A stretch of 64,000 nucleotides of DNA from positions 69,440 through 133,439 of the forward strand of contig CAVUHQ010000039.1 of the NCBI GenBank assembly GCA_963741215.1, given 5' to 3'. The stretch comes from an uncultured beta proteobacterium. Its GTDB lineage: Bacteria > Pseudomonadota > Gammaproteobacteria > Burkholderiales > SHXO01. The translations under genes were made by a program, and so were the position numbers. Below are positions 1 to 49,176 of the stretch, in pieces. Below the pieces are notes generated by a model that saw only the letters and a list, made by a program, of their open reading frames with translations, made no database searches and had not been told where the DNA came from. Positions within the stretch are counted from its first letter, which is position 1. Each line of letters begins with the position of its first letter.

Positions 1-5
1 GAGCC

Positions 6-302
6 ATGCTGGACGAGCTGACGCAACTCGACTTCGCACCTCTGGTGACCGATAGATTTCGGCTGGTCGAAAGCGACGTAACGCTGGACTTGGAGCTACT
101 CTCCGCAGAGGCCGCGACTGTCAGCGGCCATCAAGCTTCCGGGCGCGCACCTTTTTCGCTCGTCTTCCGCGGGCCGCACGAACCGCTGCTGCCCCAACGT
201 ATCTACCCCTTGCAGCATTCCGCCCTGGGCGTTCTGGACATCTTTCTCGTTCCCATCGGCCCCGACGAGTCAGGCCAGCGCTACGAGGCGGTCTTCTCCT
301 AA
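6..302 (+). CDS. small conserved hypothetical protein, cytoplasmic paralogue of 2749..3165
   Basis: 98-aa ORF. The C-terminal half aligns by eye with the 2749..3165 product (FSLVFRGP/LPQRIYPLQH/FLVPIG/YEAVFS versus FSIYFRTP/LPAGLYQVEH/YLEPVS/YRADFS). No signal peptide. It starts 5 nt from the window edge, so the true start may lie upstream. Confidence 0.55.
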   Translation: MLDELTQLDFAPLVTDRFRLVESDVTLDLELLSAEAATVSGHQASGRAPFSLVFRGPHEPLLPQRIYPLQHSALGVLDIFLVPIGPDESGQRYEAVFS

Positions 303-323
303 GATCCTGCGTCGCCACCGCGC

Positions 324-854
324 TCAGCTGCCAGGGCGGACCGTGCCTGGCGGGATCCAGATCATCTCCTTGTAGACCCCGTGGTCGGTTGTCGGCTGGA
401 ACGCGAGGCGTAAATAGAGGCGGATTGCGGCGTTGGACTGCTCGACGTGGATGATGATGGGCTTGCTCTGGCTGGCAGCCTCCGCCTGCAGCTCGCGCAG
501 GAGTGTTCCGCCGATGCCCGCCCCTCGGTACTCGGGCAGCAGCGCGATGTCGATTACGCGGATTTCCTGGTTGGACCGATCCACGTAAAAGCGGCCGGCA
601 GGATCTCCCTCCACCTCGACGACAGCGAACCGAGCCGCGGGAAAATGCGCGTGATAATAGCTGTGCTGCGCATTGAACTGCATGGTGAGGAAGACGTTCT
701 TCTGCTCCTCGCTCCAGCCGGTTAGCCGCAACTCCTCTTCCCGTGTGCTGGCGTAGACGCGAAATAAGAACGCGAGGTCCTGCTCGGAGGCGGCTCGTAG
801 AGCGATACCGGGGATCACAGTACTGCCCGCCTCCGGCCACAGTTGAAACGTCAT
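324..854 (-). CDS. GNAT-family N-acetyltransferase
   Basis: 176 codons from ATG 854 to stop 324, the lower part of ORF 324..1427. The acetyl-CoA site region IALLPEYRGAGIGGTLL followed by a beta-bulge-like segment is typical of GNAT. Co-directional with the collar genes. Confidence 0.85.
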   Translation of the reverse strand: MTFQLWPEAGSTVIPGIALRAASEQDLAFLFRVYASTREEELRLTGWSEEQKNVFLTMQFNAQHSYYHAHFPAARFAVVEVEGDPAGRFYVDRSNQEIRVIDIALLPEYRGAGIGGTLLRELQAEAASQSKPIIIHVEQSNAAIRLYLRLAFQPTTDHGVYKEMIWIPPGTVRPGS

Positions 855-916
855 CCGATGCGGCCACAGCGAGCCGCCGCGGGCCTGGATCCGTTGCAGA
901 GGGCGCCCGGTGACGC

Positions 917-1427
917 TTAGTTGCGGGCAGGAAATATCCCTTGGAGCGCGATGATGAAGTTCAGGGCGAGATAGGGCTGACGGTTGTCGTGCGGCTGCGA
1001 ATTGCCAGTGGGCAACACCGCCACGCCGGCCATGGGCACCAGATTGCCGGGCGGCCCGAAAATCTTCGCGGCCGACTGCCCAAGCACGCTGGCCCCGGGC
1101 GTATTTGTCGATGCGCCGGTCGACGCGGTCAGCTGGTGCGAATGGGCCGGTATCTGACCAAGGTTCAACGTCACAGTTTCCTCGCCGCCTTGCTCCCCAA
1201 GCGTACGGTTGGTGAGCCCTGGCCCCTGGCCTTGATGCATAGGCGAGCATCCGCGCAGGTCCGGCAGCGCGAAGTTGCGTCTTGCCATCGCCGCCATAGG
1301 TCGTACCTAGCAGCGAGAACAGCGCGGTGTTCTGCGAGATGGGAAACAACTGTCCGTTGCAAAACGCCCATCCCTTCGGCGCAAAGTTCCCCGCGAAGAT
1401 CCTGATTTCAGCGACGAATTGGTCCAT
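917..1427 (-). CDS. phage tail collar domain protein (MdpB-like), copy 1, read through one +1 frame break near 1278
   Basis: The N-terminus MDQFVAEIRIFAGNFAPKGWAFCNGQLFPISQNTALFSLLGTTYGGDGKT lies in the frame of ORF 324..1427. The remainder NFALPDLRG...PHDNRQPYLALNFIIALQGIFPARN lies in ORF 917..1297. Length is 511 nt (3n+1). Confidence 0.8.
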
Positions 1428-1455
1428 GATCGGTATCCTCGATAGCCGCAGCGAT

Positions 1456-1959
1456 TCAGCCTTGCGACGGGAACACGCCGAACAGCGAAATGATGAAGCT
1501 CACGCACAGGTAGGGAGCCATGTTGTCGTGCGGGCCGCTACCCCCTGCGGTGCTCACTGCCTGCGCGCTCATCGCCACCGCGACATTGAAGTCGTAGACG
1601 TTGCTTACTCCCGTGTTGGCGAGGAGGCTGCCCGCCGGACTCGAGAGCGGGTTGGCTGCGTCGCTGGAGCCTTGAAGTTGGTGACGATGTGCCGGCATCT
1701 GCTGGAGCGTGATAGTCACCGTTTCCGTACCAGCGGCTTGGGCAAGCACGTGCGTGCCCCCTTGGTCGATGGGAATCCTTCCCCGCAGGTCGGGTAGCGC
1801 AAATGTGTTCTGGCCATCCCCCCCGTAGGTCGTCCCGATAAGGTTGAACAGGGTCTCGTTCTCGGCGATGGGCAGCAATTGTCCGTCGCAGAACATCCAT
1901 CCCACAGGCGGGAAGTTGCCCGCAAACATCCTGATTTCGCCGACATAGGGGGTAGCCAT
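1456..1959 (-). CDS. phage tail collar domain protein (MdpB-like), copy 2
   Basis: Intact 167-aa ORF with GEIRMFAGNFPPVGWMFCDGQLLPIAENETLFNLIGTTYGGDGQNTFALPDLRG and a C-terminal PHDNMAPYLCVSFIISLFGVFPSQG. Confidence 0.9.
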   Translation of the reverse strand: MATPYVGEIRMFAGNFPPVGWMFCDGQLLPIAENETLFNLIGTTYGGDGQNTFALPDLRGRIPIDQGGTHVLAQAAGTETVTITLQQMPAHRHQLQGSSDAANPLSSPAGSLLANTGVSNVYDFNVAVAMSAQAVSTAGGSGPHDNMAPYLCVSFIISLFGVFPSQG

Positions 1960-1986
1960 GAGACTTCTCCCGATCCAAACTGGCGT

Positions 1987-2496
1987 TCAATTCTGTGAAG
2001 GGAAAATGCCTTGCAACGCGATAACGAAGGTGAGCGTAAGGTAGGGCTGCATATTGCTGTGCGGCTGTGTCGCCCCTATCGGGACCAGGGCGTTCGTCGC
2101 CATTGGCACAGCGTGATTGGCGGGGGTGAAGACATCCACGCCGAACCTTGCCTTTTTCGCCACCACCCTGCCGCTAGGATCGGTCGAGGACGCGGAGGTA
2201 GCCGACGCGTAAAGCGTGTGCGCGTGTTGGGGCATTTGGGCCTGGGTCAAAGCTGTGGTCTCCGTGCCAGCGCTTTGCCCAAGTGGATGGGTAGCCGAAA
2301 AATGAACCGGCGCGCGGCCCTGCAGATTCGGCAAGGCAAAGGTGGTAACGCCATCGCCGCCATAGGTCGTACCCAGCAGCGAAAACAACGCCTGGTTCTG
2401 ATTGATCGGCAACAGCTGACCGTTGCACAGCGCGTAACCTTTGGGGGGAAAGTTGAAGCTCACCAGCTTGATTTCGGCGAGGAATGGGTTAGACAT
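1987..2496 (-). CDS. phage tail collar domain protein (MdpB-like), copy 3
   Basis: Intact 169-aa ORF with AEIKLVSFNFPPKGYALCNGQLLPINQNQALFSLLGTTYGGDGVTTFALPNLQG and a C-terminal PHSNMQPYLTLTFVIALQGIFPSQN. Confidence 0.9.
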   Translation of the reverse strand: MSNPFLAEIKLVSFNFPPKGYALCNGQLLPINQNQALFSLLGTTYGGDGVTTFALPNLQGRAPVHFSATHPLGQSAGTETTALTQAQMPQHAHTLYASATSASSTDPSGRVVAKKARFGVDVFTPANHAVPMATNALVPIGATQPHSNMQPYLTLTFVIALQGIFPSQN

Positions 2497-2551
2497 ACTG
2501 ACACTCTCCAGATGCGGGCGGGCTATCTCCGAGCCACCAGTTCACCAGCGC

Positions 2552-2576
2552 AAACTGTGTATTTTTTTAACAGTTT
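2552..2576. promoter_or_regulatory. AT-rich inverted repeat in the divergent promoter region between collar copy 3 and 2749..3165
   Basis: AAACTG-N13(T-rich)-CAGTTT. This is the only strongly AT-rich patch in the 250-bp divergent intergenic region. Confidence 0.3.
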
Positions 2577-2748
2577 TCTGATGCATTGGGTCGGTGCGCT
2601 TGCTGGTAGCATTATTGAGCGGCGCAGATTAAAGTCAAGGACAGCGTGCACTCGCACCTGCGATTGCTATACTGGCGCCACGGTGCGAGTACCGTGTTTT
2701 GGCGAACCGCAAGCGCAGGTCCGCGGCGGCAGCGGAGGAAAATCCAAG

Positions 2749-3165
2749 ATGATGATGAAACGGCGCCAATTTGTAACCGCGGGTAGCGCCCTGCTGGCGG
2801 CAACGGGGTTCGCGCCCGCGCGCTTGATCGCAGAGTCCACGGAGACGCTCGACGTTCGTGTCGTCGGGTTTGCCGGTGGATTGAGCCAGATCAAGTTCAA
2901 GGCTCTCTTGAACCAGACCTTCTACATTCGCGACGAAACATTCGGCACTGTTTTCGCCCAGCTCGTGGCAGTGAAGAATGTGGACGGGCCGGTCAACCCC
3001 GAGCAATTCTCGATCTACTTCCGGACGCCAGCCGTGCCCGCGCTTCCCGCGGGTCTCTATCAAGTCGAGCATTATCTCGCCGGCGTGACCCCGCTCTATC
3101 TGGAGCCTGTGTCCGGATCGGGAGCAGTCCCTCTGTACCGCGCCGATTTCAGTCTGCTGCACTGA
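2749..3165 (+). CDS. Tat-exported small conserved hypothetical protein, paralogue of 6..302
   Basis: 138 codons from ATG 2749. The twin-arginine signal is MMMKRRQFVTAGSALLAATGFAPA. The C-terminal domain is similar to the 6..302 product. Confidence 0.7.
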   Translation: MMMKRRQFVTAGSALLAATGFAPARLIAESTETLDVRVVGFAGGLSQIKFKALLNQTFYIRDETFGTVFAQLVAVKNVDGPVNPEQFSIYFRTPAVPALPAGLYQVEHYLAGVTPLYLEPVSGSGAVPLYRADFSLLH

Positions 3166-3231
3166 CCGCCTGCAGGAGGCACTGGTCAGGCGGCACGCCA
3201 TGCTCTAACGCGGCGTGCAGCTCCGAATTCG

Positions 3232-3260
3232 AAACCCCGCCCCGGCGGGGTTTCGCTTTT
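3232..3260 (+). terminator. rho-independent terminator candidate
   Basis: AAACCCCG-loop-CGGGGTTT stem followed by CGCTTTT, 67 nt after the stop at 3165. Confidence 0.6.
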
Positions 3261-3387
3261 AAGGGGCCGCTGCAGAACGGGCGCCTGCTCCACGTTCACG
3301 CTCGGACGCGGGCTTGTACAATGGCGCGCTGTGTCGCTTCGGCGCCGCTGTATCGCCGTCCCACGAAAGACCCTTCCTGCCTGTCGA

Positions 3388-6300
3388 ATGAAACCTCGAG
3401 ATATCAATCTGCCCGATCGGACGCACGACGCCATCCACATCCAGGGGGCGCGCCAGAACAACCTCAAGAACCTCGACCTGCGTATCCCTTTGAACGAGCT
3501 GGTGGTCGTCACCGGTGTGTCGGGATCCGGCAAGTCGTCGCTGGTGTTCGACACGCTGTACGCGGAGGGCCAGCGACGCTACGTGGAGACGTTCTCGCCC
3601 TACGCCCGGCAGTTCCTGGACCGGATGGACAAGCCGCAGGTGGACCGCATCGACGGCATCCCGCCGGCCATCGCCATCGACCAGACCAACCCGGTGCGCA
3701 CCTCGCGCTCCACGGTGGGAACGATGACGGAGCTCAACGACCACGTGAAGCTCCTCTATGCCCGCGCCGCGCACCTCTATTGCCGAGGCTGCGGTCAGCC
3801 GGTCCGCCGCGACACGCCTGAGACAATTCTGGCCGAGTTGAGCGCGCAGGGCGGAAGGTGCGGGCGACCCGCGCTTGATCGTTACGTTCCCCGTGACGGT
3901 GCCGAAGAACTTCTCGCAGACGGAAGTGCGCCAGCTCCTCGAGCAGCAAGGCTATACGAGATTGCACTCGCACAAGGGCAACCTGCTGGAAGTCGTGCAG
4001 GACCGCTTCCGCGTGTCCGGGGTGGAGCGCTCGCGGATAGCGGAAGCGCTGGAAGCGGCGCTGCGCGTCGGGCAAGGCAAGGTGAACGTCTACGTGATTG
4101 CGGAGGAAAGTATCGCTGTCGCGAACCTTTCTGACGCGGCGGCGGATCAGACTTCGTCTTCATCCCAGGTCTCTCCCACAGCCGGAGAAGAGGCAACCGC
4201 ACCGCTCGGCGCGCAACCGGTGTGGCGCTTCTCGAGCGATCTCCACTGCGCCGACTGCGACATCCACTATCAGGACCCGACGCCGAGCCTGTTCTCCTTC
4301 AACTCGCCCATCGGCGCGTGCGAGACCTGCCGCGGCTTCGGCCGCTCCATCGGCATCGATTTCGGTCTGGTCATACCCGACGAATCGAAGACCCTGCGCG
4401 AGGGTGCCGTCAAGCCCTGGCAGACGCCGAGCTTCAAAGAATGTCAGGACGACATGGAGCGCTTCGTCCGCAAACGCGGTGTGCCGATGGACGTGCCCTG
4501 GCGCGATATGGCCGACGAGCATCGTGAATGGGTGCTGGAGGGCGATCCGGACTGGATCAGCTGGAGCAAGTCCTGGCCGGGCAAGTGGTACGGCGTGCGG
4601 CGCTTCTTCGCGTGGCTGGAGTCGAAGAGCTACAAGATGCACATCCGCGTCCTGCTCTCCAAGTACCGCGCCTACACCGCTTGCATCGCCTGCGAAGGCG
4701 CGCGGCTCAAACCCGATGCGCTGCTGTGGCGCCTGGGCACCAACGAGGACGCCGATGGAGTGCTGGCACCGGAGAAGCGGTTCCGGCCGCACGGATTCAC
4801 ACTTGCAGTGGACCAGCTGCAGGCCCTGCCGGGCTTGACGGTGCACGACCTCATGCTGCTGCCCGTCGACCGCTGCCGGGAGTTCTTCGCTCGCCTGCAT
4901 TTGCCCGCGCCACTGGATGAAGCGACCGATCTGCTCCTCACGGAAATTCGCGCACGCTTCGGCTATCTCAACCAGGTGGGCCTCGGCTATCTGACGCTCG
5001 ATCGCCAGTCGCGCACGCTATCGGGCGGAGAGGTCCAGCGCATCAATCTCACCACCGCGCTCGGCACCTCGCTGGTGAACACACTGTTCGTGCTGGACGA
5101 GCCTTCTATCGGTTTGCATCCGCGCGACATGGGCCGCGTGATCGACGTGATGAAGCACCTGCGCGACGCCGGCAATTCGCTGGTGGTAGTGGAGCACGAC
5201 CCGCAGATCATGCTGGAAGCCGACCGCATCCTCGACATGGGACCCGGTCCGGGAGAGCGCGGCGGCAACGTCGTTTTCTTCGGCACGCCGTCCGAGCTGA
5301 CGCGGATGCCAGGCTCGCTGACTGCGGACTATCTGGCGGGACGACGGCGCGTGGATGACAGATCCGAATCCTCGGCGCCGCAACCGCCGGCCGCGGCCGG
5401 AATGAAGGAGCCCGCCGATGCCGGTTCCATCGATATCCTCGGCGCCGCCGAACACAACCTGAAGGCGATCAACGTCGCCATCCCGCTGCATCGACTCGTA
5501 TGCATCACCGGCGTAAGCGGTTCGGGCAAGTCCACGCTGGTGCAGGACGTGCTGTACCCGGCGCTGCGCAAGCACAAAGGCAAGCCGACCGAGGCGCCCG
5601 GCGCCCATCGGGCCGTACTCGGCCACGACAGAATCGCGAATGTCGTGATGGTGGACCAGTCCCCGATCGGCCGCACCACGCGCTCCAACCCGGCCAGCTA
5701 CGTCGGCGCGTTCGATGCCATCCGTCAGCTCTTCGCCAAGGAGCCGCTGGCCAAGGGACGCGGCTATACGCCTGGCACTTTCAGCTTCAACTCGGGTAAT
5801 GGCCGCTGCCCCACCTGCGGGGGGAACGGCTTCGAGCACGTGGAGATGCAGTTCCTGTCCGACGTGTACTTACGCTGTCCAGACTGCGACGGCAAGCGCT
5901 ACCGGGACGAGGTGCTGGAGGTGACGCTGCGCAGGGAAGAGCATTGCCGACGCGCTCGAGATGACGGTGTCGCAGGCGGTTGCCTTCTTCTCCGAGCAGC
6001 CCGAGGTGCTCGCCGTGCTGCGGCCCCTCGCAGACGTGGGACTGGAGTACCTCAAGCTGGGCCAGCCCGTACCCACGCTCTCCGGCGGCGAGGCGCAACG
6101 GCTGAAGCTGGCAGGGCATCTCGCCGAGGCTGCGCGGCCTACTTCTCGCGCCCCGAGCACAGCGCGTCCAGCCTTAGCGCCTGCGCACGGGCGCGGGAGC
6201 TTGTTCCTGTTCGATGAACCGACCACCGGGCTGCACTTCGACGACATCGCCAAGCTGCTGAGAGCCTTTCGTCAATTGATTGCGGCAGGACATTCGCTGG

Positions 6301-9264
6301 TGGTAATCGAGCATAACCTCGACGTGATCGGCGCCGCCGACTGGATCATCGACCTGGGCCCCGAGGGCGGTGACGCCGGCGGCGAAGTCATGTGTGCCGG
6401 TACGCCGCAAGAGGTGGCCACGAACGCGCGCTCGTATACGGGCGTAGCTTTGCGGGACTACCGGGCGGCTCTGGTGAATCTGGCGGTCGCGAAGTCCGCT
6501 CTGCACCCGTTGCATGGAGGCGAGGATTTTCCAATTGCGGCACCGGCCGGCGTGCGCCTGAGCAACGGCTCCATCCATATCCACAACGCGCGCGAGCACA
6601 ATCTCAAGAACGTGGACGTGCAGATTCCGCGCGAGAAGTTCACGGTGATCACCGGAGTTTCGGGCAGCGGCAAGAGCACGCTCGCCTTCGATATCTTGTT
6701 CGCCGAAGGCCAGCGGCGCTACCTGGAATCGCTCAACGCCTATGCGCGCCAGTTCGTGCAGCCGGCTTCGCGCCCGGATGTGGACGCCATCTTCGGCATC
6801 CCGCCCACGGTCGCCATCGAGCAACGCACCAGCCGCGGCGGACGCAAGAGCACGGTCGCCACGCTGACCGAGATCTATCACTTCCTGCGGCTGCTGTTCG
6901 TCAAGCTGGGGACCCAGTACTGTCCCAACTGCGACGTGCCGATCGAGCCGCAGAGCTTCGAGGCCATCAGCGCGCGCCTGATGCGCAATTACCGCGGGCA
7001 ACACATCGGCCTGCTGGCGCCGCTGGTGGTGGCGCGCAAGGGCTACTACACGGATCTGGCCAAATGGGCCTCCGGCAAGGGCTATGCGCACCTGCGCGTG
7101 GACGGGGCGTTTCTACCAACCGCCAAGTGGCCGCGGCTGTCGCGCTTCCAGGAGCACAGCATCGAGCTGCCGGTAGCGGATCTGCGCGTGGAGCCGGCGA
7201 ACGAAGCAACGCTGCGCGAGGCGCTGACGCGCGCGCTGGAGTTCGGTAAAGGCGTAGTGCAGGTCATCGCGCCGCTGGATGGGCTCATGCAAGGCAACGC
7301 CAAGGTGACCGAGGCGACGTTCTCGACCAAGCGCGCCTGCCCTTCCTGCGGCACCAGCTTCCCCGAGCTCGACCCGCGGCTGTTCTCCTTCAACTCCAAG
7401 CACGGGTGGTGCGAGACCTGCTTCGGGACCGGATTGAAGCTCGGCGACATCGGCTGGGATGAGGAACGCGAGAGGACCGGGACCGAGGACCATGTCCTCG
7501 ACTCCTGGCTGGAATGGCTCGAGGTGGATGAGGCTTGCCCCGCGTGCGAGGGCAAGCGGCTGAATCCGACGGCGCTGCACGTCCGCTTCCAGGACCGCTC
7601 CATCGCCGACCTCACCGCCTTGCCGGTGGCCACGGTCGAGGGCTTCTTCCATGACATGCGCCTGGAAGGTCGAGGCGCCGAGATTGCGCGCGACATTCTG
7701 GCGGAGTTGAAGGCGCGCCTGTCCTTCCTGCAGGACGTGGGACTGTCTTATCTGGCCCTGGACCGCTCTGCACCGACGCTTTCCGGCGGCGAGGCCCAGC
7801 GCATCCGGCTGGCATCCCAACTCGGGTCCAACCTGCGCGGCGTGTGCTACATCCTGGACGAGCCCACCATCGGCCTGCATCCGCGCGACAACAGGATTCT
7901 GCTGGACACGCTGGCCAAGCTCGAAGCCAAGGGCAACACCTTGGTGGTGGTGGAGCACGACGAGGACACCATCCGTCACGCCGAGCACGTCATCGATCTG
8001 GGCCCTGGAGCCGGCACGCTCGGCGGGCAGGTGGTGGCGCAGGGCTCGGCCGCGGAATTGATGCGTCAACCCGATTCGCTCACGGGGCGATTCCTGGCGC
8101 ACCCGCTCAGGCACCCGATCCAGCCGCGCCGCGCGGTCGAGCGCAAAACGCCGCACATCGATGTGCTCGGCATGCGCCTCCACAACCTCAAGAACGCCGA
8201 CGTGCGCATCCCGCTCGGGCGGCTTACGGTCGTGACCGGTGTGTCGGGCAGCGGCAAGAGCACGCTGGCGCGCGACGTGTTGCATCAGAACCTGGTGCAA
8301 CTGCTGAGCAGCAGCCGGCGGCGGGCGCGACGTCGCGCTGTTCGGCTGCCGGCAGATCGAGGGCTGGGAACAAATCGGACGCGTCCTCGAAGTGGACCAG
8401 ACGCCGATCGGCAAAACGCCGCGCTCCTGCCCGGCGACGTATGTGGGTTTCTGGGACGCGATCCGCAAGATGTTCGCCGAGACCAACGAATCACGCATGC
8501 GCGGGTACGGCCCGGGGCGCTTCTCCTTCAACACCGCGGGCGGGCGCTGCGAATCCTGCGAGGGCCAAGGCCTGAAGACGATCGAGATGAGCTTCCTGCC
8601 GGACGTGAAGGTCACCTGCGAGGCATGCGGCGGCGCGCGCTTCTCGCCCGAGACGCTGATGGTGCGCTTCAAAGGCAAGAGCATCGGCGACGTGCTGGCC
8701 ATGAGCGTGGACGAGGCGGCCGACTTCTTCTCCGCCCATCGCTCGATCCATCATGCGCTCAAGCTGCTGCAAGACGTGGGGCTCGGTTATATCACGCTGG
8801 GTCAACAGAGCCCGACCCTGTCCGGCGGCGAGGCGCAGCGCATCAAGCTGGTTACGGAGCTGGCGAAGGTTCGCACGGATGTTTCTCACCCGTTCAAGGG
8901 GAGAGCCAACGAGGGCACGGGTTCTCGCGGCGGCGGGATTTCCACCCTTTACGTCCTCGACGAGCCCACCGTCGGGCTGCACATGGCCGACGTGGAAATG
9001 CTCATCCGCGTTCTGCACCGCCTGGTCGACGCCGGCAACACGGTAGTGGTCATCGAGCACAATCTAGACGTAATGGCGGATGCCGACTGGATCATCGACC
9101 TCGGCCCGGAGGGCGGCGATGCAGGCGGTGAGATCGTCGCGCAGGGCTCGCCCGAAGACATCACCGGACAGGATCGCGCTCCCGAGACGAGAGGCGGCGC
9201 GGCAGCGCGCTCGCACACGGCCGCGGTATTGAAAGGTTTCCTGGCGCAGCGGGGACGTGGTTGA
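3388..9264 (+). CDS. tandemly duplicated UvrA-family ABC ATPase (two complete UvrA units fused, about 1958 codons), three +1 frame breaks near 3850, 5933 and 8315
   Basis: Four UvrA-type Walker A sites: [66 protein letters not shown] and [18 protein letters not shown]. Four LSGGE(A/V)QR...DEP(S/T)xGLH segments. Zn-finger CxxC pairs are present. Homology continues across ORFs 3331.., 3875.., 5961.. and 8392... Confidence 0.9.
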
Positions 9265-13384: not shown

Positions 13385-16300
13385 GTGAAACTCAACGACA
13401 CCGATCTTTCCCTCCCGCCCCAGCAGGTCAGCCTCGACGTGCTGCTGGAGAAGTACGCCAAGGGCGAGGAACGCACTATCGAGGACGTGCGCCGGCGCGT
13501 CGCACGCGCGCTCGCCGCGGTCGAGAAGGAGCCCGCGCAAGTGGGAACCGGTGTTCTACGAAGCGCTCGAGAACGGCTTCATCCCGGGCGGGCGGATCAA
13601 CTCCGCCGCCGGCACGCAGCTCACGGCCACGCTCATCAACTGCTTCGTGCAGCCGGTGGGCGACTCGGTCTCGCAGACGGTGGACGGCAAGCCCGGCATC
13701 TACGTCGCGCTGCTGGAGGCCGCGGAGACCATGCGCCGCGGCGGCGGGGTCGGCTACGATTTTTCGTCGATCCGCCCGAAGGGCGCGCTGGTGCGCGGGA
13801 CCAACAGCAGCGCGAGCGGCCCGGTGTCCTACATGCGCGTGTTCGACCAGAGCTGCGAGACGGTGGAGTCGGCCGGCGCGCGCCGCGGCGCGCAGATGGG
13901 GATACTCCGCTGCGATCACCCCGACATCGAAGACTTCATCCACGCCAAGGACCAGGGCGATCTGCGCAACTTCAACGTGAGCGTGGCGGTCACCGACGCC
14001 TTCATGCGCGCGGTGGAAGCCGACGGCGATTGGGAACTGGTGCACAAGACGCCGCCCGGCCGCGAGTGGGAGCACGGGCCGGTACGTCAGCGCGACGACG
14101 GGAAGTGGGTCTATCGCACGGTCAAGGCGCGCGATCTGTGGCAGCAGATCATGGAGCTCCACGTACGATCACGCCGAGCCGGGCGTGTTCTTCGTCGATC
14201 GCGTCGAACGCGGACGACAACCTCTCGTACTGCGAGAGCATCGAGGCGACCAATCCCGTGCGTTACCGCGGATACCTGGGTGATGACCGGCTCGGGGCCG
14301 CGGCAGGTTCGCGATCTGATCGGTCGGCAGTTCGACGCGATAGTCGATGGGAGAGCCTACCGGCGCTCCGAGGGATTCTTTCGGACCGGCACGAAACCCG
14401 TACTTCAGCTTCGAACGCGGGAAGGCTTCGCATCCGGCTAACAGCCGACCATCTCGTACGCGGGTCTTCTATCGAAGAGCCGTACATGCTGGAGACGGAA
14501 TGGGTACGCGGCGAAAGCGTCTGCAGCCCGGCGATCAAGATCGTGCTGCACGACCATCGAGCCTTGGCTGGTTGGGCCGGTGCGGTACACGAAGACGAGG
14601 GATATCTGATCGGCTTGCTGATCGGCGACGGCCATCTGAAGGAAGACAAGGCCGTCCTGGCAGTCTGGGATCCCGAGGCTCGCATGCAGGCAAATGGTGG
14701 CTGCGTGCTTTCGCCAGGAGCCGGCAGCGTGATGGAGGCCGCAGAACAGCGCGCATTCGGCAGCTGCCCGCATCGCAGCGATTTCCGATGGCTGGCAAAG
14801 CCGCGTAGCCGCGACGATCGGAGTTCCGGCTTCAGTCTGGCGCATTGCGTGACCTGGCGCTCTCGCTTGGAATGCGGCCTGGCAACAAGCGGATCACCGA
14901 TGAGGTCGAGCGCTGCTCATCGGACTTTTGCTGTGGGCTGCTGCGCGGCTTCTTCGATACAGACGGTTCAGTCCAGGGTACGCAGGAGAAGGGCGTAAGC
15001 GTCCGCCTGACGCAGGTCGACCTGAGCAATCTGCGTCCGCGCGCAACGCATGCTGCTTCGGCTGGGCATTAGCTTCGACCATCTACGAGACCGGAAACCG
15101 GCAGGACAGAAGCTCGCTGCCTGATGGCAAGGGCGGCCAAGCGCTATACCCAACCCAGGCACTTCATGAGCTTGTGATCAGCGGGGAGAATCTGCTGCGC
15201 TTCGAGCAAACGGTCGGCTTTGTACACGCACGAGAAAGCGCAGACGGCTAGCCGACTTGCTGGCCTCGTACAAGCGCACACTCAATCGCGAACGTTATAC
15301 CGCGACGGTTGAGTCGGTCATTGAGGACGGCATGGAGGACGTGTTCGACGTGACCGTTCCTGACGTACAGTGCGTTCGATGCGAATGGCCTCTACGTGCA
15401 CAATTGCGGAGAGCAGCCGCTTCCCTCCTACGGCTGCTGCTGCCTCGGCAGCATCAACCTCGACGCCGTTCGTCGCGCGATCCGTTCACGCCGAAGGCGC
15501 GCTTCGACTTCGACGCCTTCGGCAAAGTCGTGCGCCCGGCGGTGCGCATGCTCGACAACGTGCTCGACGTCGACCGTGTGGCCGCTCCCGCAGCAGCAGG
15601 ACGAGGCGATGACCAAGCGCCGCGTGGGGCTCGGCTTCACCGGCCTGGGCGATGCGCTGATCATGCTGGGGCTGCGCTACGACACCGACGAAGCGCGCCG
15701 CATGGGCGCGAAGATCGCGGAGGCGATGCGCGACGAGGCCTACGCGGCGTCGGTCGAGCTGGCGCAGGAGAAAGGCGCCTTTCCCGCTGCTCGACGCGGA
15801 GCAGCTATCTCGCCGCGCCGCGCTTCGCCTCGCGCCTGCCGGAGCGATCTGAAGGGCGAAATCCGCAAGCACGGCATCCGCAACAGCCACCTGCTGTCGA
15901 TCGCGCCCACCGGCACGATCTCGCTCGCCTTCGCCGACAACGCCTCGAACGGCATCGAGCCGCCCTACTCCTGGACCTACCAGCGCAAGAAGCGCAGGCC
16001 CGACGGCTCGATCAAGATCTACGACGTCGAGGACCACGCCTGGCGGCTGTACCGGCATCTCGGCGGCGACGTGGAGAAGCTGCCGCCGCAGTTCGTCACC
16101 GCGCTGGAGCATCTCCGCGCTCGACCACATGCGCATGGTCGCGGCGGTGGCGCCGTTCGTGGATTCGGCGATCAGCAAGACGGTCAACGTGCCGGAGGAC
16201 TATCCGTACGAGCAGTTCAAGGACCTCTACCTGGAGGCCTGGAAGGCGGGGCTGAAGGGCATCACCACTTACCGCCCGAACAAGGTGCTGGGCAGCGTGC

Positions 16301-17399
16301 TGTCGGTCGCGCCCAGCCCGAAGCCGAGCAGCCGAACGATCTCGACACTCAGACGCCGACCGCCGCATCCGGCTGGAGGCGGCGCCGCAGCCCGCGCTGT
16401 CGAGCCTGCGCTGGCCGGGGCGGCCGAAGCTCGCCGCCGGCAATCCGTCCTGGACCTACATGGTCGAGTCGCCGTTCGGCCAGTTCGCGATCTTCGTCGG
16501 CCACGTCGAGAACGGCGAGCCGTACCCGTTCGAGGTGTGGGTCAACGGCAACGAGCAGCCGCGCGGACTGGGCGCGGTCGCCAAGACGCTGTCGATGGAC
16601 ATGCGCGCGCAGGACCAGGCCTGGCTGCGCATGAAGCTCGACATCCTGGCGCGCACCGCGGGCGACGACGCCTTCGACTGCCCGATGCCGCCCGATGGCA
16701 AGCCGGTGCGCGTGCCGAGCCTGGTGGCGGCGTTCGCGCGCATCGTGCGCTATCGCGTGGACCAGCTCGGCGCGCTGCGCGACAGAGCCGGACGGCAGAG
16801 TCGCCGGTGCTCGACGCGCTGTTCGCGAAGAAGGAGCCCAAGACCGGCACCGACGGCACGATGTCGTGGACGGTGGACGTGCACAATCCGCGCGCCGGCG
16901 ATGACTTCGTGCTGATCCTGAAGGAGCTGGTGCTGCCCAACGGCCAGCGCCGTCCGTACTCGGTGTGGATGGCGGGCGACTACCCGCGCGCGCTCGACGG
17001 GCTTGTGCAAGCTGCTGTCGCTCGACATGCGCGTGATCGACCCGGCGTGGATCGGCATGAAGCTGCGCAAGCTGCTCAACTACGCCGAGCCGCTCGGCGA
17101 TTTCATGGCGCGGGTGCCGGGCGAGGAGCGGCAGCAGAATTTCCCGAGCACGATCGCCTACGTGCGCGCGGCTCATCATCCACCGCTACGCGATGCTCGG
17201 CGTGCTCGACGAGCGCGGCTATCCGGTGAACGAGATGGGCGTGCTCGAGATTCCCGAGGACGACCGCGAAGCCGCGAAGACGCCGCCTACCGCGTCGCTG
17301 CCCGGCAAGCGCTGCGCGGAATGCGGCAACGCGGCGGTGATCAACAAGGACGGCTGCGAGTTCTGCACGGCGTGCGGGGCGATCGGCGCGTGCGGGTGA
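13385..17399 (+). CDS. nrdJ: class II (adenosylcobalamin-dependent) ribonucleotide reductase NrdJ interrupted by an intein; many frame breaks
   Basis: Extein segments [35 protein letters not shown] / [29 protein letters not shown] and [33 protein letters not shown]. The C-terminal Cys cluster is [22 protein letters not shown]. The pieces are scattered over all three forward frames. Confidence 0.85.
14259..15404 (+). mobile_element. intein with LAGLIDADG homing-endonuclease domain inside nrdJ
   Basis: Begins [10 protein letters not shown] directly after extein ATNP. Block B is IRLTADHLV. The LAGLIDADG motifs are [13 protein letters not shown] and [13 protein letters not shown]. It ends GLYVHN, followed by extein CGEQPLP. 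Length is 1146 nt. The reading frame is broken several times inside the intein. Confidence 0.8.
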
Positions 17400-20882: not shown

Positions 20883-23608
20883 ATGCTCAACCCCACGCCC
20901 ACGACCATCTACCTCAAGGACTACCGTCCGCCCGCGTTCCTGATTTCCACCGTCGATCTGGACGTGGACATCCAGGACGACTTCGCGCGCGTGACGGCAA
21001 GCCTTGCGGTCCGCCGCAACCCCAAGTCCGCCGATTCGAAAGCGCCGCTGGTGCTCTCCGGCGACGAGGTCGAGCTGGAGTCGATGGCGCTGGACGGCAA
21101 GCCGCTGCCGGCGTCGGCGTACGCGTCGATGCGGCGGAACTGAGCCTCGCCAACGTGCCGGACCAGTTCACCCTGACCACCGTCTGCCGGATACACCCCA
21201 GGCAGAATACCAAGCTGATGGGGCTGTATGCCTCGAAGGACGGCTACTTCACCCAGTGCGAGGCGGAGGGCTTTCGGCGCATCACCTTTTTCATCGATCG
21301 GCCCGACGTGATGGCGCGCTACACCACCACCATCCACGCGGACAAGCAAAAGTATCCGGTGCTGCTGTCGAATGGGAACCTGGTGGCGAGCGGAAGCAGC
21401 CCTCACCTACCCTCTCCCATACGTCGAAGACGACTCCCTCACCACCCTCTCCCGGAGGGAGAGGGAGTTACTGCTCGGAGACTATTTCGGCTCGGCATTG
21501 GGCACGCTGGGAGGACCCGTTCCCCAAGCCCTCCTATCTCTTCGCCCTGGTGGCCGCCAAGCTCGACAAGCTCGAGGATAGCTACGTCACGCAGTCGGGG
21601 CGCACGGTAAGCCTGCAGATCTACGTCGAGCCCGGCAAGCTGGACCAGTCGGGCTTCGCCATGCTGGCGCTGAAGAAGGCCATGCACTGGGACGAGGAGG
21701 TGTTCGGGCTGGAGCTGGACCTCGACCAGTACATGATCGTGGCGGTCGGCGACTTCAACATGGGCGCGATGGAGAACAAGGGGCTCAACATCTTCAACAC
21801 CAAGTACGTGCTCGCCCGTCCCGACACCGCCACCGACACCGACTTCATGCTCATCGACCGCGTGGTGGCGCACGAATACTTCCACAACTGGACCGGCAAC
21901 CGCGTCACCTGCCGCGACTGGTTCCAGCTCTCGCTCAAGGAAGGCCTGACGGTGTTCCGCGACCAGGAGTTCGGCGCCGACATGTACTCGCGCGCGGTGC
22001 AGCGCATCCAGGAAGTGCGCGGCCTGCGCGCGGCGCAGTTTCCCGAGGATGCGGGGCCGATGGCGCATCCGGTGCGGCCGCAGTCGTACATGGAGATCAG
22101 CAACTTCTACACCGCGACGGTGTACGAGAAGGGCGCTGAAGTCGTGCGCATGATCCACACGCTGATCGGACGCGCGAACTTCCGCAAGGGCATGGACTTG
22201 TATTTCCAGCGCTTCGACGGCCAGGCCGTCACCACCGACGACTTCGCCCAGGCCATGCAGGATGCGAGCGGCGTGGATCTCGCCCAGTTCAAGCGCTGGT
22301 ACGATCAGGCCGGCACGCCGGTGCTGGAGGTCAGCGGCACCTACGACGCGGACGCGAAGCGCTATACGCTCACCGTGAAGCAGTCCTGCCCGCCCAGTCC
22401 CGGGCAGCCCGACAAGCTGCCATTCCACATTCCGTTTGCCGTCGGTCTCGTCGATGCCGATGGCAAGGAGCTTCCGCTGCGGCTGGAAGGCGAAGCCGAG
22501 GCAGCAGGCACGACGCGCGTGCTGTCGCTGAGATCACCCGAAGCGCGCTACACCTTCGTGGACGTGGCGACAAAACCCGTGCCCTCGCTGCTGCGCGGCT
22601 TCTCTGCGCCGGTGCTGCTGAGATACGCCTACACCGACGGCGAGCTGACGCATCTGATGGCGCACGACAATGACGCCGTCAACCGCTGGGAAGCGGGACA
22701 GCGGCTCGCGCTCGAGATCGTGCTCGACGGCATCGCAAAGCAGCAGGCCGGCCGCCAGCCGGATTTTCCGGCGAGCTTCGTCGACGCCTTCGCGCGCGTG
22801 CTGGCCGATGGGCCCGCGGACCCGGCCTTCGCAGCCGATGCGCTGTCGCTGCCCTCCGAGGGCTACATCGCGGAGCAGATGAAAGTGGTCGACCCCGACG
22901 CCATCCACGCCGTGCGCGTGGAATTGCGCCGCTACCTGGCGCGATCGCTGCGCAGCCAGTTGCTCGCAACCTACGCGTCTCAGAACGTGACCGGACCATA
23001 CAGCCCGGACGCGGAAGCGGCAGGACGGCGCGCGCTGCGCAACCTGTGCCTGGGCTATCTCATGGAACTGGACGACCCCGAGATGCGCTCGCTCACCATG
23101 CGGCAGTTCACCGGCGCCAACAACATGACCGACGCCATGGCGGCGCTCTCGACCCTGGCCAACACCGACTGCGCGGAGCGCCAGGCTGCACTCGACGCCT
23201 TTTATGCCAAGTGGAAGGAGGAGCCGCTGGTGGTGGACAAGTGGCTCGGCGTGCAGGCGAGCTCGCGTCTGCCCGGCACGCTCGGCGAAGTAAAGCGGTT
23301 GCTGGTCGCACGAGGCCTTCAACATCAAGAATCCGAACAAGGTGTATGCGCTGATCGGCGGCTTCCGCGGCAATCAGGTGCGCTTCCACGCGGCCGACGG
23401 TGCCGGATACGCATTCCTCGCGGACCAGGTGATCGTGCTCGACGCCCTCAATCCGACAGTGGCGGCGCGCATGGCGCGCGGCTTCGACCGCTGGAGGAAG
23501 TTCGACACTGGACGGCAGGTGAAGGCGCGCCAGGCGCTCGAGCGCATCCGCGATGCGCAGGGGTTGTCGAAGGATACGTTCGAGGTCGTAACTCGCGCGC
23601 TGGCATGA
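20883..23608 (+). CDS. pepN: aminopeptidase N, frame breaks near 21125, 21400-21490 and 23305
   Basis: [12 protein letters not shown], the zincin motif [34 protein letters not shown], and collinearity with E. coli PepN through to the C-terminal [12 protein letters not shown]. Confidence 0.9.
21445..21465. repeat. perfect 9-bp-stem hairpin CCCTCTCCC-GGA-GGGAGAGGG inside an extra segment of pepN
   Basis: Read directly. It lies within about 80 extra nt between conserved [11 protein letters not shown] and [13 protein letters not shown]. Confidence 0.6.
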
Positions 23609-23684
23609 GGGTGATTTACGCACATTCTCAGGTTCGCGCGCCTGGCCGGGTGCCGCGCGATCGTTCAGGTCGGGATGAGTGCGG

Positions 23685-24155
23685 TCATTCCGCCTCGCCG
23701 TCCGCGCTGCCTGGCTGGAACACCGAGCGCAGCCACCGCGCCCAGGCCCAGAGCGCGAAGCAGCTGATCAGCACACCACCGATCCCGAACCAGATGCGGC
23801 CGCTCAGCTCGCTGCTGGCCGAAGAGGTGAACACCGGGCCGATCGACAACCCGCCGCTGAAGTGGCGCTCGCCGGGCCCGAAGGCGACCCAGTCGAATAC
23901 CGATGCGAACGCCGTGACCAGCAACCCGCCGAGGAAGCCGCGCAGTCTTATCCAGTCCTCCGGCAGCAGAACCAGCGTTCCTGCCATGGAGAAGGTGAAC
24001 CCGGCCATGAACACGACCCACTCCGGCGCATGCAGGCTGCCGGGCCTGGGCGTGATGAGGCCGGTGGCCACCGCCATGATCGGCAATCCGGCAACCACGA
24101 AGATCAGGCCCATGGCCAGCCGGCCGCCGGGGGTGAGTGGTGCGTCGTTAGGCAT
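23685..24155 (-). CDS. hypothetical integral membrane protein
   Basis: 156 codons from MPNDAPL with four hydrophobic segments. No family recognised. Confidence 0.5.
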   Translation of the reverse strand: MPNDAPLTPGGRLAMGLIFVVAGLPIMAVATGLITPRPGSLHAPEWVVFMAGFTFSMAGTLVLLPEDWIRLRGFLGGLLVTAFASVFDWVAFGPGERHFSGGLSIGPVFTSSASSELSGRIWFGIGGVLISCFALWAWARWLRSVFQPGSADGEAE

Positions 24156-24234
24156 GGTCAGCTTGCATGCGCGGCGTGTTACCCGACCGATGCAACATCC
24201 GTGCGCAGCTCTCCTGAAAATCGATACGGCATAG

Positions 24235-36203: not shown

Positions 36204-37175
36204 TCATCGAATCAGCTCGTCCGCACGGACGAGCATAGACTCTGGGATTCGGACACCAAGCGCCCGGGCGGTCTTGAGATTGATCGCCAGGTGGAACCTT
36301 GAGATCTGCTCAACAGGCAACTCGGCTGCTTTGGACCCCTTCAAGAGGCGATCGATAAGGTACGTCACGCGACGCATAGCTTCGGTCAGATCTGGGCCAT
36401 ATGAAAGTAGTCCCCCGGCGGTTGTGAACCAGGGCTCTTGGAACACGGTGGGCAGCTTGGCCTTTAGAGCTTCGGCGGCCAGACTGGCGCGTGGCAAGAA
36501 GAAGGTCGGGGAGTACAAGAACATACCCGCGTCAGCGCCTTGTCTCTCCTGCCGCAGAAGATCCGCAAATCCGCGGACATCCCGAACTTCGACGAGACGC
36601 ACCTCAATGTTTAGCGCGTGTGCGGCTGGCTCGAGTTCTCCGAGCTGGTTGCGGCTGAAGGAGTCCCAGAAAACCATAACCCGGCGCGCGGTGGGTATCA
36701 GCTCCTTCAACAGCTCAAGCCGCTTTCCGGTGAGCTGCGTCTGCAGCAGGGACACTCCTGTTACATTGCCTCCAGGTCGGCTGAGGCTCTCGATCAAACC
36801 CGCAGCTAGAGGGTCATAGTCCCATGCTAGGAATACGATGGGAATAGTGTTGGTGGCTTGCTTTGCCGCGCGCAACCCCGGTTCGTTCGGCGTCATGATG
36901 ACGTCCACCTTTTCCTCGACAAACTCAGCGGCGATCCGAGGAATCCGCTCTCGATGACCTTCCGCATAGCGACTGTCTATCTTTATGTTTCTTCCGTCTT
37001 CATACCCTAGCTCGCGCAGCCCTTGAAGGAACGGAGGCATGGAAGGATCATTCGGATCAAACGCAGAGCCTCTTACGATTCCAACGACGGGCACGCGACT
37101 TGATTCCCGTCCGAATGCACGGCTGGGCAGCGCGAGCGGCACGATCGAACCTAGAAGAAAGTCGCGACGCTTCAT
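36204..37175 (-). CDS. orphan ABC-type substrate-binding protein, COG2984/PF04392-like (copy 1)
   Basis: Intact 323 aa with an RRDFLL signal, SLSRPGGNVTG, and the C-terminal LPVEQISRFHLAINLKTARALGVRIPESMLVRADELIR. Confidence 0.85.
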   Translation of the reverse strand: MKRRDFLLGSIVPLALPSRAFGRESSRVPVVGIVRGSAFDPNDPSMPPFLQGLRELGYEDGRNIKIDSRYAEGHRERIPRIAAEFVEEKVDVIMTPNEPGLRAAKQATNTIPIVFLAWDYDPLAAGLIESLSRPGGNVTGVSLLQTQLTGKRLELLKELIPTARRVMVFWDSFSRNQLGELEPAAHALNIEVRLVEVRDVRGFADLLRQERQGADAGMFLYSPTFFLPRASLAAEALKAKLPTVFQEPWFTTAGGLLSYGPDLTEAMRRVTYLIDRLLKGSKAAELPVEQISRFHLAINLKTARALGVRIPESMLVRADELIR

Positions 37176-37337
37176 TCACTCACTTTTCGGTCGCATCCAG
37201 TAGCCGACCGCATCGGACGCTCGACGCTTCGCATGACCGGGCGTTGGCATGCGCAGCGTGACGGGTACCAACGGTACTGCCGCTTCGCGCTCCGGTCGCT
37301 GCGAGCTTGGGCATCTGCTCGCAAAGCGCGGCAGCAC

Positions 37338-37886
37338 TCACTTGAGCGGCGGCCCCACCACTTCCATGTTGTGTGTCTTCATGAGCGTGCGGTACGTCTC
37401 TGCGTCCACACCTTGTCGTTCCTGGAAAATCCTCTCAAGTCCTCCTGGCGTCACGCCGACTAGCAACACGCCAGGCTCGCCGCCGACATTCTGGAAGGCG
37501 TGCGCGGTTCCTCGAGGCACGAACATAACGGACTGAGCAGGGGCGCTCATGATACGGTCGCCCAATTTGACCTTGAACTCCCCGCTCACGACGTAGAAGA
37601 ACTCGTCTTCGGTTTGGTGAACGTGGGTGGGCGGACCGCTCTTGGGTGCGATGGTCTGACGGAACATGCCGAGCGAACCTCCGGTTTGGTCAGCTGTTGC
37701 CAGGAGCTCGGTGAAGTCCGCCTCTCTGCCCTGTTGGCCGGAGAATCGTGGCGCACTGTCAGGTAAGACGACGAACCCCGCTGCTGCCAACAACCAAACA
37801 GCAGCCACCGCGCTGGGACCCGAGAGCAGAGTGCCCACGATGCATCCGACAACGATCCATGTCCGAGAGCCGAGACGTAACTTCAT
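37338..37886 (-). CDS. cupin-domain protein with an N-terminal membrane anchor/signal
   Basis: Cupin motifs PPTHVHQTEDEFFYVVSGE and VPRGTAHAF. The N-terminal segment is hydrophobic. Confidence 0.75.
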   Translation of the reverse strand: MKLRLGSRTWIVVGCIVGTLLSGPSAVAAVWLLAAAGFVVLPDSAPRFSGQQGREADFTELLATADQTGGSLGMFRQTIAPKSGPPTHVHQTEDEFFYVVSGEFKVKLGDRIMSAPAQSVMFVPRGTAHAFQNVGGEPGVLLVGVTPGGLERIFQERQGVDAETYRTLMKTHNMEVVGPPLK

Positions 37887-37943
37887 GGCGCGAGTTCTCC
37901 TTCTCAAAGTAATTCGATAAGACCAGTGGATTGGGCGGCACTT

Positions 37944-38921
37944 TCAACGGATCGCCTCGTCGGCGCGCAAGAGTATCGATTGGGGGACCGTCAGGTTGAG
38001 GGCTTTTGCCGTTTTGAGATTTACGACCATCTCTAACTCGGTCGGCTGCTCAACTGGAAGATCATTTGGCCTGGCGCCCTTGACCACTCGATCGATGAAA
38101 TACGCAAGACGCTTGAAGGTCTTCAAAGCGTCGGTGCCGTAAGACATGAAGAATCCGGCTCTCGCGAAGTCCGATGAGTAGCCAATCACCGGCAACCGGT
38201 TGTCGACGGCCTGCTGCGCAATGGATTCGCGAACGACGTAGAACGCGGGCGAATACAGGAACATCGCGGCGCCCGCCTTCTTTTGCTTCGCGCTCTTGAA
38301 AGAGATGCCGTAGTTGTAGGGGGGCGTCAACTCCGTGAGTACGAGCTGAATGCCGAGCGAGCGTGATGCGGACTGAACATCCTCCACCTGGCGGCGCCCA
38401 TAGGAGTCGTAGAAAACAGCGACACGCGATAGGTTCGGAATCGCTTCCTTTAGCAGTTCGAGGCGCTTGCCGATCAACTCCGGCGCGCGCGTGAAGACAC
38501 CCGTAATGTTCCCGCCGGGATGAGCCAAGCTGTCGATCAAGCCGGCAGCGACAGGATCGTAGTCGAAGAGCGCCGCGACGATCGGGATCGTGCTGGTGGA
38601 CCGCTTCGCGGCGAGCATTGCCCCTTCGGTTCCGACGATGATGAAGTCAACCTTGAGCTGCACAAGCTCCTCTGCCAGGGGCTGGAGTCGATCAACCTGC
38701 CCCTGTGCGCCACGGTACTCGAACCGGAAGTCGCGACCCTCGACGTATCCCAGCTCGAGAAGTCCTTTGCCGATGGCGTGGATGGAGGGATCATCCGGGC
38801 CGGCGCTCACGAATAGTATGCCCAAGACGAGCGCTCGGCTCGATTGCTCTGCCCACCCAGTGATCGGGAGCGTGGCGAGACTTATCGCGATAGCGAGGCA
38901 CGCCGAGCGTATGGTCGCCAT
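37944..38921 (-). CDS. orphan ABC-type substrate-binding protein, COG2984/PF04392-like (copy 2)
   Basis: Intact. Signal peptide, SLAHPGGNITG, and the C-terminal LPVEQPTELEMVVNLKTAKALNLTVPQSILLRADEAIR. Confidence 0.85.
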   Translation of the reverse strand: MATIRSACLAIAISLATLPITGWAEQSSRALVLGILFVSAGPDDPSIHAIGKGLLELGYVEGRDFRFEYRGAQGQVDRLQPLAEELVQLKVDFIIVGTEGAMLAAKRSTSTIPIVAALFDYDPVAAGLIDSLAHPGGNITGVFTRAPELIGKRLELLKEAIPNLSRVAVFYDSYGRRQVEDVQSASRSLGIQLVLTELTPPYNYGISFKSAKQKKAGAAMFLYSPAFYVVRESIAQQAVDNRLPVIGYSSDFARAGFFMSYGTDALKTFKRLAYFIDRVVKGARPNDLPVEQPTELEMVVNLKTAKALNLTVPQSILLRADEAIR

Positions 38922-38959
38922 ATATCGTGATCTCGACAGGGCATTGGGCGGCAAATTAA

Positions 38960-40298: not shown

Positions 40299-40487
40299 GA
40301 CGCGTTCCCCTGCTTCAGCGGGGGCTATCTTGCAGGAAATATGGCCCAACGACCCCAGTTCACCGGGCCGCGAGAGCAAGCGAAGCGCCGCTTTCGCGGC
40401 TTCGATGCAACTGACGGTTGGGCGTCACATGGTTCATACTGACTCGAACGCGTCCAGCAGCACGCCATAACCGAAGCGCTCGACAGT

Positions 40488-41460: not shown

Positions 41461-41562
41461 ACCCCTCTTCCGCGCGTGGTGCCGCAAGCTGTCATCATCA
41501 TCGTATCGCTGTGTCAGGGGTGCAGTTCACGCGATGTGCAGGTCGCAGTCCCGCTGGCGCCC

Positions 41563-48932: not shown

Positions 48933-49176
48933 GGAAGAAGTCCTTGAACGGCACTGAAGTTGACTGGGAACTTGGAGATCGTCGGAAGTACCGGCGGCGG
49001 GACGGTCAAAGGCCGCGCGAGCTGTACTCGTCAGGATCATCCTGTGCAGAACGGCGCAAACGATGGTGTCCTCGCGCAAGTACTCACTGGTATTCGCTAT
49101 GCATACGACTGCCGTGATGAAACCGCAACACGTGAGAGCAAGGCATCGGCCCGATCCTCGATGTGAACCAAGATGT

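Follow-up and report, generated by a model that had tools for sequence, protein, structure and literature searches.

The collar locus in the window

The left end of a 64,000-nt stretch of DNA from an uncultured beta proteobacterium (contig CAVUHQ010000039.1, positions 69,440 to 133,439; hereafter the window) encodes three stand-alone proteins with the Collar domain, a GNAT acetyltransferase and two proteins of the DUF6916 family. This segment, positions 1-3165 of the window, is one complete and ordinary instance of a widespread, sharply defined module. Genes were called from the listing of open reading frames (ORFs) and the sequence, together with a scan of all six products against the hidden Markov models (HMMs) of Pfam. 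The collar operon lies on the minus strand. Its first gene encodes collar A (1987..2496, 169 aa), which matched the Pfam Collar model (PF07484) with an E-value of 1.2e-26 and 92.8 bits as well as the Gp10_C model with 28 bits against a cutoff of 27. The middle gene encodes collar B (1456..1959, 167 aa; Collar E 1e-29, 102.7 bits), and the third encodes collar C (917..1427, 169 aa when reconstructed), in which the N-terminal part only was matched (Collar E 7e-23, 80.8 bits). The gathering cutoff of the Collar model is 24 bits, and all three window collars score above it. Last in the operon is the gene for the GNAT (324..854, 176 aa), which matched Acetyltransf_1 (PF00583; E 7.8e-11, 42.7 bits against a cutoff of 20.7) and also Acetyltransf_7. 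The collar genes are separated by spacers of 27 and 28 nt, and 62 nt precede the GNAT gene. Both DUF6916 genes (PF21880, cutoff 27 bits) are on the plus strand. D1 (6..302), which encodes a cytoplasmic protein of 98 aa (E 1.7e-28, 98.9 bits), is convergent with the GNAT gene across a 21-nt gap, and D2 (2749..3165), which encodes a 138-aa protein with a signal of the twin-arginine translocation (Tat) type (E 7e-14, 52.1 bits, residues 49-134), is divergent from the collar operon. A candidate sigma-70-like promoter for the operon (2611..2638, minus strand; TTGACT-16-AATAAT, 10 of 12 matches) precedes the collar A start by about 115 nt, and a terminator-like hairpin (3239..3251, plus strand; GCCCCGGCGGGGT followed by a T-rich tail) lies 3' of D2; each is a consensus match only. 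A scan of positions 1-3600 of the window against Rfam returned no RNA element above noise.

These results partly confirm an initial annotation of the same DNA and support its interpretation. It had assigned the collar fold to all three genes, had described the flanking small proteins as paralogues of which one carries a twin-arginine signal, and had placed a UvrA-family ATPase next to the block; the Pfam Collar matches, the assignment of both small proteins to DUF6916 and the confirmation of a UvrA-like gene agree with this. Its view that the collar paralogues diverge mainly in their middle segments is also borne out, as identity among the three window collars is 34-39% there and 57-68% in the N- and C-terminal parts (48-55% overall). 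Three co-directional genes of about 170 aa with spacers under 30 nt had been reported; the spacers and the shared strand stand, but 917..1427 is not an intact ORF here, a frameshift having been overlooked. The placement of the GNAT 62 nt downstream on the strand of the collars likewise stands, and the orientation of the block is corrected to collars and GNAT on the minus strand with the DUF6916 genes on the plus strand. The N-terminal consensus quoted for the three collars is only approximate, as collar A has VSFNF and GY in place of FAGNF and GW, and collar B has LFNLIG.

The collar C gene has a single additional base near 1277-1278, which puts it out of frame and gives rise to the ORFs 917..1297 and 324..1427. 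Two metagenome contigs are collinear with the window at about 96% identity, L001 over 11.6 kb and L002 over 5.6 kb; the extra base occurs in neither, and their collar C is an intact protein of 169 aa. Breaks were also found in other window genes. The UvrA-like gene (3331..9264, plus strand) is spread over four overlapping ORFs in the window and forms a single ORF of 1962 aa in L001, a double length that indicates a tandem-duplicated UvrA paralogue. The aminopeptidase N (PepN) gene is frame-broken (21004..24234), with PepN homologues covering 65% of 21604-24234, and a ribonucleotide reductase ORF (15396..16634) matches the barrel-domain model only in part. Because collar C is intact in the relatives and the UvrA-like, PepN and ribonucleotide reductase genes are broken as well, the break in collar C is probably an assembly error; the assembly appears to be indel-rich and was probably built from long reads. 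A programmed frameshift was ruled out, since the relatives of about 96% identity have the intact gene without the extra base. The PepN homologues, at 74-83% identity, belong to metagenome-assembled genomes named as Burkholderiales or Betaproteobacteria.

Conservation of the gene set and the three collar types

A survey started from the collar proteins, with one genome per species, resulted in at least 595 matching loci, and the 80 best of these were typed by phylum. These 80 are distributed over Acidobacteriota, Pseudomonadota (alpha, beta and gamma), Verrucomicrobiota, Chloroflexota, Bacteroidota, Actinomycetota, Gemmatimonadota and Eremiobacterota. Gene content was scored with purpose-built HMMs for the collar, the module GNAT and DUF6916, with which the window GNAT scored 282 and D1 140. 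Among the 52 fully flanked loci, defined by at least 3.5 kb on both sides, the collar triplet was present in every one, the module GNAT in 47, DUF6916 in 44 and two copies of DUF6916 in 18. A search started from DUF6916 on metagenome contigs of at least 5 kb (n = 24) found the GNAT on 21, collars on 20 and the full triplet on 16, and the GNAT adjoins DUF6916 in 47 of 71 metagenome contigs with room for one. The gene set is thus conserved across phyla whether the search begins with the collars or with DUF6916, a family that itself counts 8787 cluster representatives at 50% identity. Gene order differs among loci and the gene set is constant; the exact layout of the window is repeated in three loci from the DUF6916 search (L177, L190 and L228) and in L001 and L002. 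The same gene set occurs on plasmids of Aminobacter, Deinococcus ficus and Paenibacillus, and cultured carriers include Mesorhizobium erdmanii, Chiayiivirga flava, Dyadobacter linearis, Flavobacterium phragmitis, Deinococcus ficus and Aminobacter sp. SR38. The initial annotation had named no function for the arrangement, and our literature searches likewise gave no function, no description of the module and no publication on it within the library covered. At some loci a gene is inserted between the triplet and the GNAT, encoding a 494-aa protein with weak FG-GAP/tectonin-like matches on the Aminobacter plasmid (L010, 7071..8555) and a Peripla_BP_6 protein on the Deinococcus ficus plasmid (L012, 7081..8241); several other loci have gaps of 0.7-2 kb at this place.

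Clustering of 252 collar proteins from 84 triplets separated them into three orthogroups, A, B and C, and exactly one member of each was found in 84 of 84 triplets. In the window, 1987..2496 was typed as A, 1456..1959 as B and 917..1427 as C. The order is ABC in 75 triplets, BAC in 6, BCA in 2 and CBA in 1, and the nearest neighbour from another locus shares the operon position for 238 of the 252 proteins. Window collar B, for example, has 60-64% identity with its counterparts in the middle position of other triplets, as against 48-53% with its own paralogues. Where extra copies occur, they are whole triplets (ABCABC, BACBAC, or ABCAB ended by the end of the contig). Of the 13 columns that are fixed within a type and differ among types, 12 fall in the collar parts and one in the middle, and the middle segment is only 41-45% identical within one type. 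Because the fixed columns concentrate in the collar parts and the middle varies within types, the identity of a chain would seem to reside in the part used for assembly and not in the part used for binding. An obligate A:B:C heterotrimer predicts this pattern, which is hard to fit with three independent homotrimers, and the sequences accordingly favour such a heterotrimer. The heterotrimeric assembly suggested in the initial annotation is therefore strengthened, by the one-each composition of the triplets, by their duplication as units and by the position of the type-specific residues, although this does not amount to proof.

The collar chains are minimal "collar plus head" units of the type found in T4 gp12, of about 168 aa and with no fibre shaft. 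Their sequence relatives in the Protein Data Bank (PDB) are phage tail fibres only, including T4 gp12 (PDB 1OCY, 1PDI and 5IV5), with which they share the Collar domain (phmmer E 3e-05), and a solved long tail fibre (8KEC; profile E 7e-10), of which the motif LPSHQH aligns with the HxH of the collars. No NCBIfam model matched the collars or DUF6916. P-x-H-x-H and PHxNxxP are invariant in the collar alignment, as are H144, N146 and P149 in the distal strand (PHxNxxPY...F.I), between which and the collar the window proteins have a variable insert. Two features recur in gp12, namely the H-x-H motif and the terminal strand PHxNxxPY, and the middle part is weakly Gp10_C-like. In gp12, histidines of the HxH type bind metal on the trimer axis. 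An AlphaFold2 (AF2) model of the collar B monomer failed, with a predicted local distance difference test (pLDDT) score of 45; it was unusable for a fold search and is merely consistent with a knitted oligomer, the failure of a lone chain being expected of a knitted trimer such as gp12. The window collars differ from gp12 in lacking a fibre shaft and a baseplate-binding N-terminus, starting three residues ahead of the collar, and the module differs in always having three distinct chains where gp12 has one, in the absence of a phage context and in the presence of a GNAT and DUF6916. The collar N-termini follow the pattern M-[A/S]-[E/Q/D]-P-[F/Y]-[L/V]-x-E-I-R, with no N-terminal extension and no signal peptide. 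At residue 2, about 95% of the proteins have Ala or Ser and about 99% have one of the small residues Ala, Ser and Gly, so removal of Met would leave an N-terminal Ala or Ser.

Acetyltransferase, DUF6916 proteins and giant neighbours

The window GNAT scored 40.6 bits with the rimI equivalog model (TIGR01575), below its cutoff of 86.4 bits. When a profile of 22 module GNATs was compared with the PDB, protein N-alpha-acetyltransferases ranked on top (6wqb, 1e-13; RimI, 1e-8; Naa50, 2e-8), with the matches restricted to the acetyl coenzyme A (AcCoA) core. In 2010, Iyer, Aravind and colleagues described gene neighbourhoods that combine tail-collar proteins with modifying enzymes, acetyltransferases among them, and suggested that these enzymes act on the collar proteins (PMC2938197). 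The systems that they described differ from the present one in being centred on dioxygenases, sulfotransferases and 3'-phosphoadenosine-5'-phosphosulfate (PAPS) synthetases, with no triplets, DUF6916 or Tat-exported partner among them. Given the M-[A/S] starts of the collars, the matches to N-alpha-acetyltransferases and the proposal of Iyer et al., our preferred guess, held with low confidence, is that the GNAT may acetylate the N-termini of the collars.

The N-terminus of D2, MMMKRRQFVTAGSALLAATGFAPARLIA, is of the Tat type by reading, with a KRRQFV motif, a hydrophobic stretch and LIA; the assignment was made from the motif, with no HMM match. Equivalent DUF6916 copies at other loci carry [ST]RRxF[LI]K signals, including the near-consensus SRRKFLK. 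Two kinds of DUF6916 protein could thus be told apart, namely a cytoplasmic copy beside the GNAT, often convergent with it, and a copy with the [ST]RRxF[LI]K signal. Among the loci with two copies, exactly one bears the signal in 22 of 24, as in the window. D1 and D2 were distinguished by the presence of the signal peptide; spectral clustering of the DUF6916 sequences gave no separation. The AF2 model of D1 (pLDDT 89.7) consists of one helix and a six-stranded beta-barrel, for which Foldseek found no significant match in the PDB (best E 0.2) or in BFVD (best E 0.06). The signal-bearing copy suggests a destination in the envelope, and a folded knob of collars could possibly be exported by Tat hitch-hiking. 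Folded hetero-oligomers are known to leave the cytoplasm in this manner, as in the case of the small and large subunits of hydrogenases. The likeness is one of analogy only, in that the signal is on one component, D2, and the putative metal-bound oligomer has none; it is limited by the interaction of DUF6916 with the collars being hypothetical and by D2 being found in about a third of the loci.

At many loci, the module is accompanied by a very large protein. A protein of at least 700 aa is encoded directly upstream and on the same strand in 33 of 88 loci, or about 40%, and within 8 kb in 61 of 86. These proteins reach at least 2633 aa in the fetched flank, carry Sec-type signals where the N-terminus was captured, and contain cadherin, Big_9, DUF11 or DUF7933 repeats; the loci include L014, L019, L020, L028, L036, L048, L051, L057, L066, L069 and L073. 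They share a C-terminal domain of about 130 aa with ISGNT-type turns, an R-L-R-Q-R...LPGY motif, two conserved Cys and a C-P-x-P end, which no Pfam model covers. An HMM of this domain gave no match in the 64-kb window, and L001, L002 and L004 are also without a giant protein. The window does contain a fragmented, large adhesin-like gene (45748..49079, minus strand) with RTX nonapeptide repeats and Big_9/cadherin-like domains. It was considered as the giant partner and rejected, as the weak tblastn matches at 45.9-48.7 kb reflect a generic RTX/Big_9/cadherin adhesin without the C-terminal domain.

Genomic context and interpretation

The initial annotation had seen nothing phage-like at the locus, and this holds over a wider range: no phage or tailocin genes were found in the 64-kb window, nor beyond position 1 in the flanks of L001 and L002, from which alone the upstream flank is known. 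In these relatives, the region beyond position 1 encodes a PEP-CTERM protein of 239 aa, followed by a GntR regulator; the former (1971..2690 in L002, 11746..12465 in L001) has the PEP-CTERM sorting motif and no other Pfam domain. The remaining window genes are ordinary chromosomal ones, among them genes for phosphofructokinase, ribonucleotide reductase, aminopeptidase N, a pyrroloquinoline quinone (PQQ) dehydrogenase, solute-binding proteins, a sensor kinase and the RTX/cadherin adhesin. Four consecutive solute-binding protein genes lie at 36204..41487 (minus strand), three of them ABC_sub_bind (PF04392) paralogues and one SBP_bac_8. In a scan of IMG/VR, full-length stand-alone triplets were found only on a few short contigs (L094-L102 and L105, the longest with a full triplet being L105 at 19.5 kb), some with a GNAT or DUF6916. 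The other matches were collars within larger tail proteins or mini-collars of 78-100 aa; ORFs for the latter, on many phage contigs (L111-L117, L122-L124, L129-L166), have the N-terminal collar part fused straight to the last strand, with no middle domain. One of the contigs with full triplets, L099 (1..5456; IMG/VR UViG_2848685470_000004), carries nine tandem collar genes that form three successive triplets of a divergent clade, in which typing as A, B or C is ambiguous. The collar module is cellular and not of a phage.

Stand-alone collar proteins outside phages have been described from other small operons, namely RhiB of the Rhizobium rhiABC operon and MrpB of Microcystis (COG4675). The window collars belong to COG4675 as well, and their homologues are labelled "microcystin-dependent protein" by the Joint Genome Institute (JGI). 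RhiB matched the collar profile of the module with an hhalign probability of 95%, at an identity of 24% over 84 columns only and with its C-terminal half unaligned. RhiA and RhiC, by contrast, stayed below a probability of 1% against the collar and DUF6916 profiles, and in pRL10 the rhi genes are accompanied by a LuxR-type regulator and an N-acyl homoserine lactone (AHL) synthase, with no GNAT or DUF6916. Equating the module with rhiABC was therefore rejected, RhiB being only a distant collar relative and RhiA and RhiC matching nothing here. None of the six window proteins matched an anti-phage model of PADLOC.

The explanation that we consider somewhat better than even is that of a module built around a 1:1:1 collar knob, with the GNAT and DUF6916 proteins as partners and a role at the cell surface. 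Under this explanation, A, B and C would fold together into an intertwined trimeric knob, in which the invariant P-x-H-x-H motifs would coordinate metal on the trimer axis and the fast-evolving middle segments would form the binding surface. The GNAT would modify the collar subunits, most plausibly at the conserved Ala or Ser exposed by Met removal. The DUF6916 proteins may serve as partners or adaptors, the copy with the Tat signal offering the folded complex a route across the inner membrane. Elsewhere, the giant secreted cadherin-like protein would be the likely partner at the cell surface, and the window would represent the version without it. From these sequence features we infer that the module is a surface or extracellular binding complex. 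Several points weigh against this explanation. The 1:1:1 stoichiometry is a prediction, and three separate homotrimers may be formed instead; the collars have no signal peptide and might act in the cytoplasm. D2 with its Tat-type signal occurs in no more than about 25 of 80 loci, too few for Tat hitch-hiking to be the general export route, and DUF6916 has no recognisable fold relative, which makes its role a guess. The GNAT resembles N-terminal acetyltransferases in the AcCoA core only and scores less than the rimI model demands, the window has no giant partner, and the frameshift in collar C could be that of a genuine pseudogene.

The strongest competitor, to which we give about one chance in four, is that the three collars form separate homotrimers, each with its own ligand specificity, and so provide a small arsenal of lectin-like knobs. 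T4 gp12 and the other solved collar-bearing fibres are homotrimers, and the middle segments of the paralogues differ strongly, both of which speak for such an arsenal; one would then expect the genes to be gained and lost one by one, however, whereas A, B and C occur once each in 84 of 84 triplets and are duplicated as a set. The type-defining residues, moreover, lie in the collar parts outside the variable middle, and with 41-45% identity in the middle within a type, the types do not look like fixed specificities. An intracellular role appears unlikely. The module could act as an anti-phage decoy or sensor directed against tail-fibre assembly, or the GNAT could pair with DUF6916 as a toxin and its partner, with the collars as accessories. 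Such a role would suit the absence of signal peptides from the collars, the GNAT and D1, the nearly constant direct adjacency of the GNAT and D1 genes, and the positive selection among collar paralogues reported in Solibacter (PMC3174227). It is opposed by the lack of any PADLOC match for the six proteins, by the GNAT and D1 genes often being convergent, unlike toxin-antitoxin operons, and by the recurrent DUF6916 copy with a Tat-type signal and Sec-secreted giant cadherin-like neighbour, which point to the envelope.

The possibility that the locus is a decayed remnant of a prophage or of tailocin tail fibres, without a cellular function and with the frameshift as a sign of decay, is already largely refuted and in our judgement very improbable. 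It has in its favour that the collar domain is most familiar from the tail fibres of phages (tail families of PHROGs) and that one collar gene is frame-shifted in the window. Yet neither the window nor the flanks of its relatives contain phage genes, the gene set with its dedicated GNAT and DUF6916 is kept in at least 8 phyla, identity within the collar orthogroups is 60-65%, and the UvrA-like, PepN and ribonucleotide reductase genes of the same window are broken too, which indicates assembly error.

A bolder form of the surface-binding explanation, which we regard as doubtful when all of its parts are taken together, sees the module as a domesticated receptor-binding knob of a phage: an obligate A:B:C trimer, acetylated at its N-termini, that would hitch-hike through the Tat pathway on DUF6916 and act as the tip or partner of giant cadherin-like adhesins. 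If true, this would amount to a previously unrecognised, phylum-spanning system of surface recognition in bacteria, and the heterotrimer, if true, would be an uncommon example of a receptor-binding fold of phages turned into a three-gene cellular complex. To our knowledge, the non-phage collar proteins (MdpB, RhiB and COG4675) have been on record, with no function assigned, for over 20 years. A large fraction of these can now be placed in one module, in which three ancient chains that do not replace one another are joined by a dedicated GNAT, by DUF6916 in one or two copies and, often, by a giant adhesin. The module yields testable hypotheses on stoichiometry, acetylation and Tat dependence, for which the cultured carriers are tractable. 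Proteins of COG4675 have been detected in soil metaproteomes, and members of the family are thus expressed.

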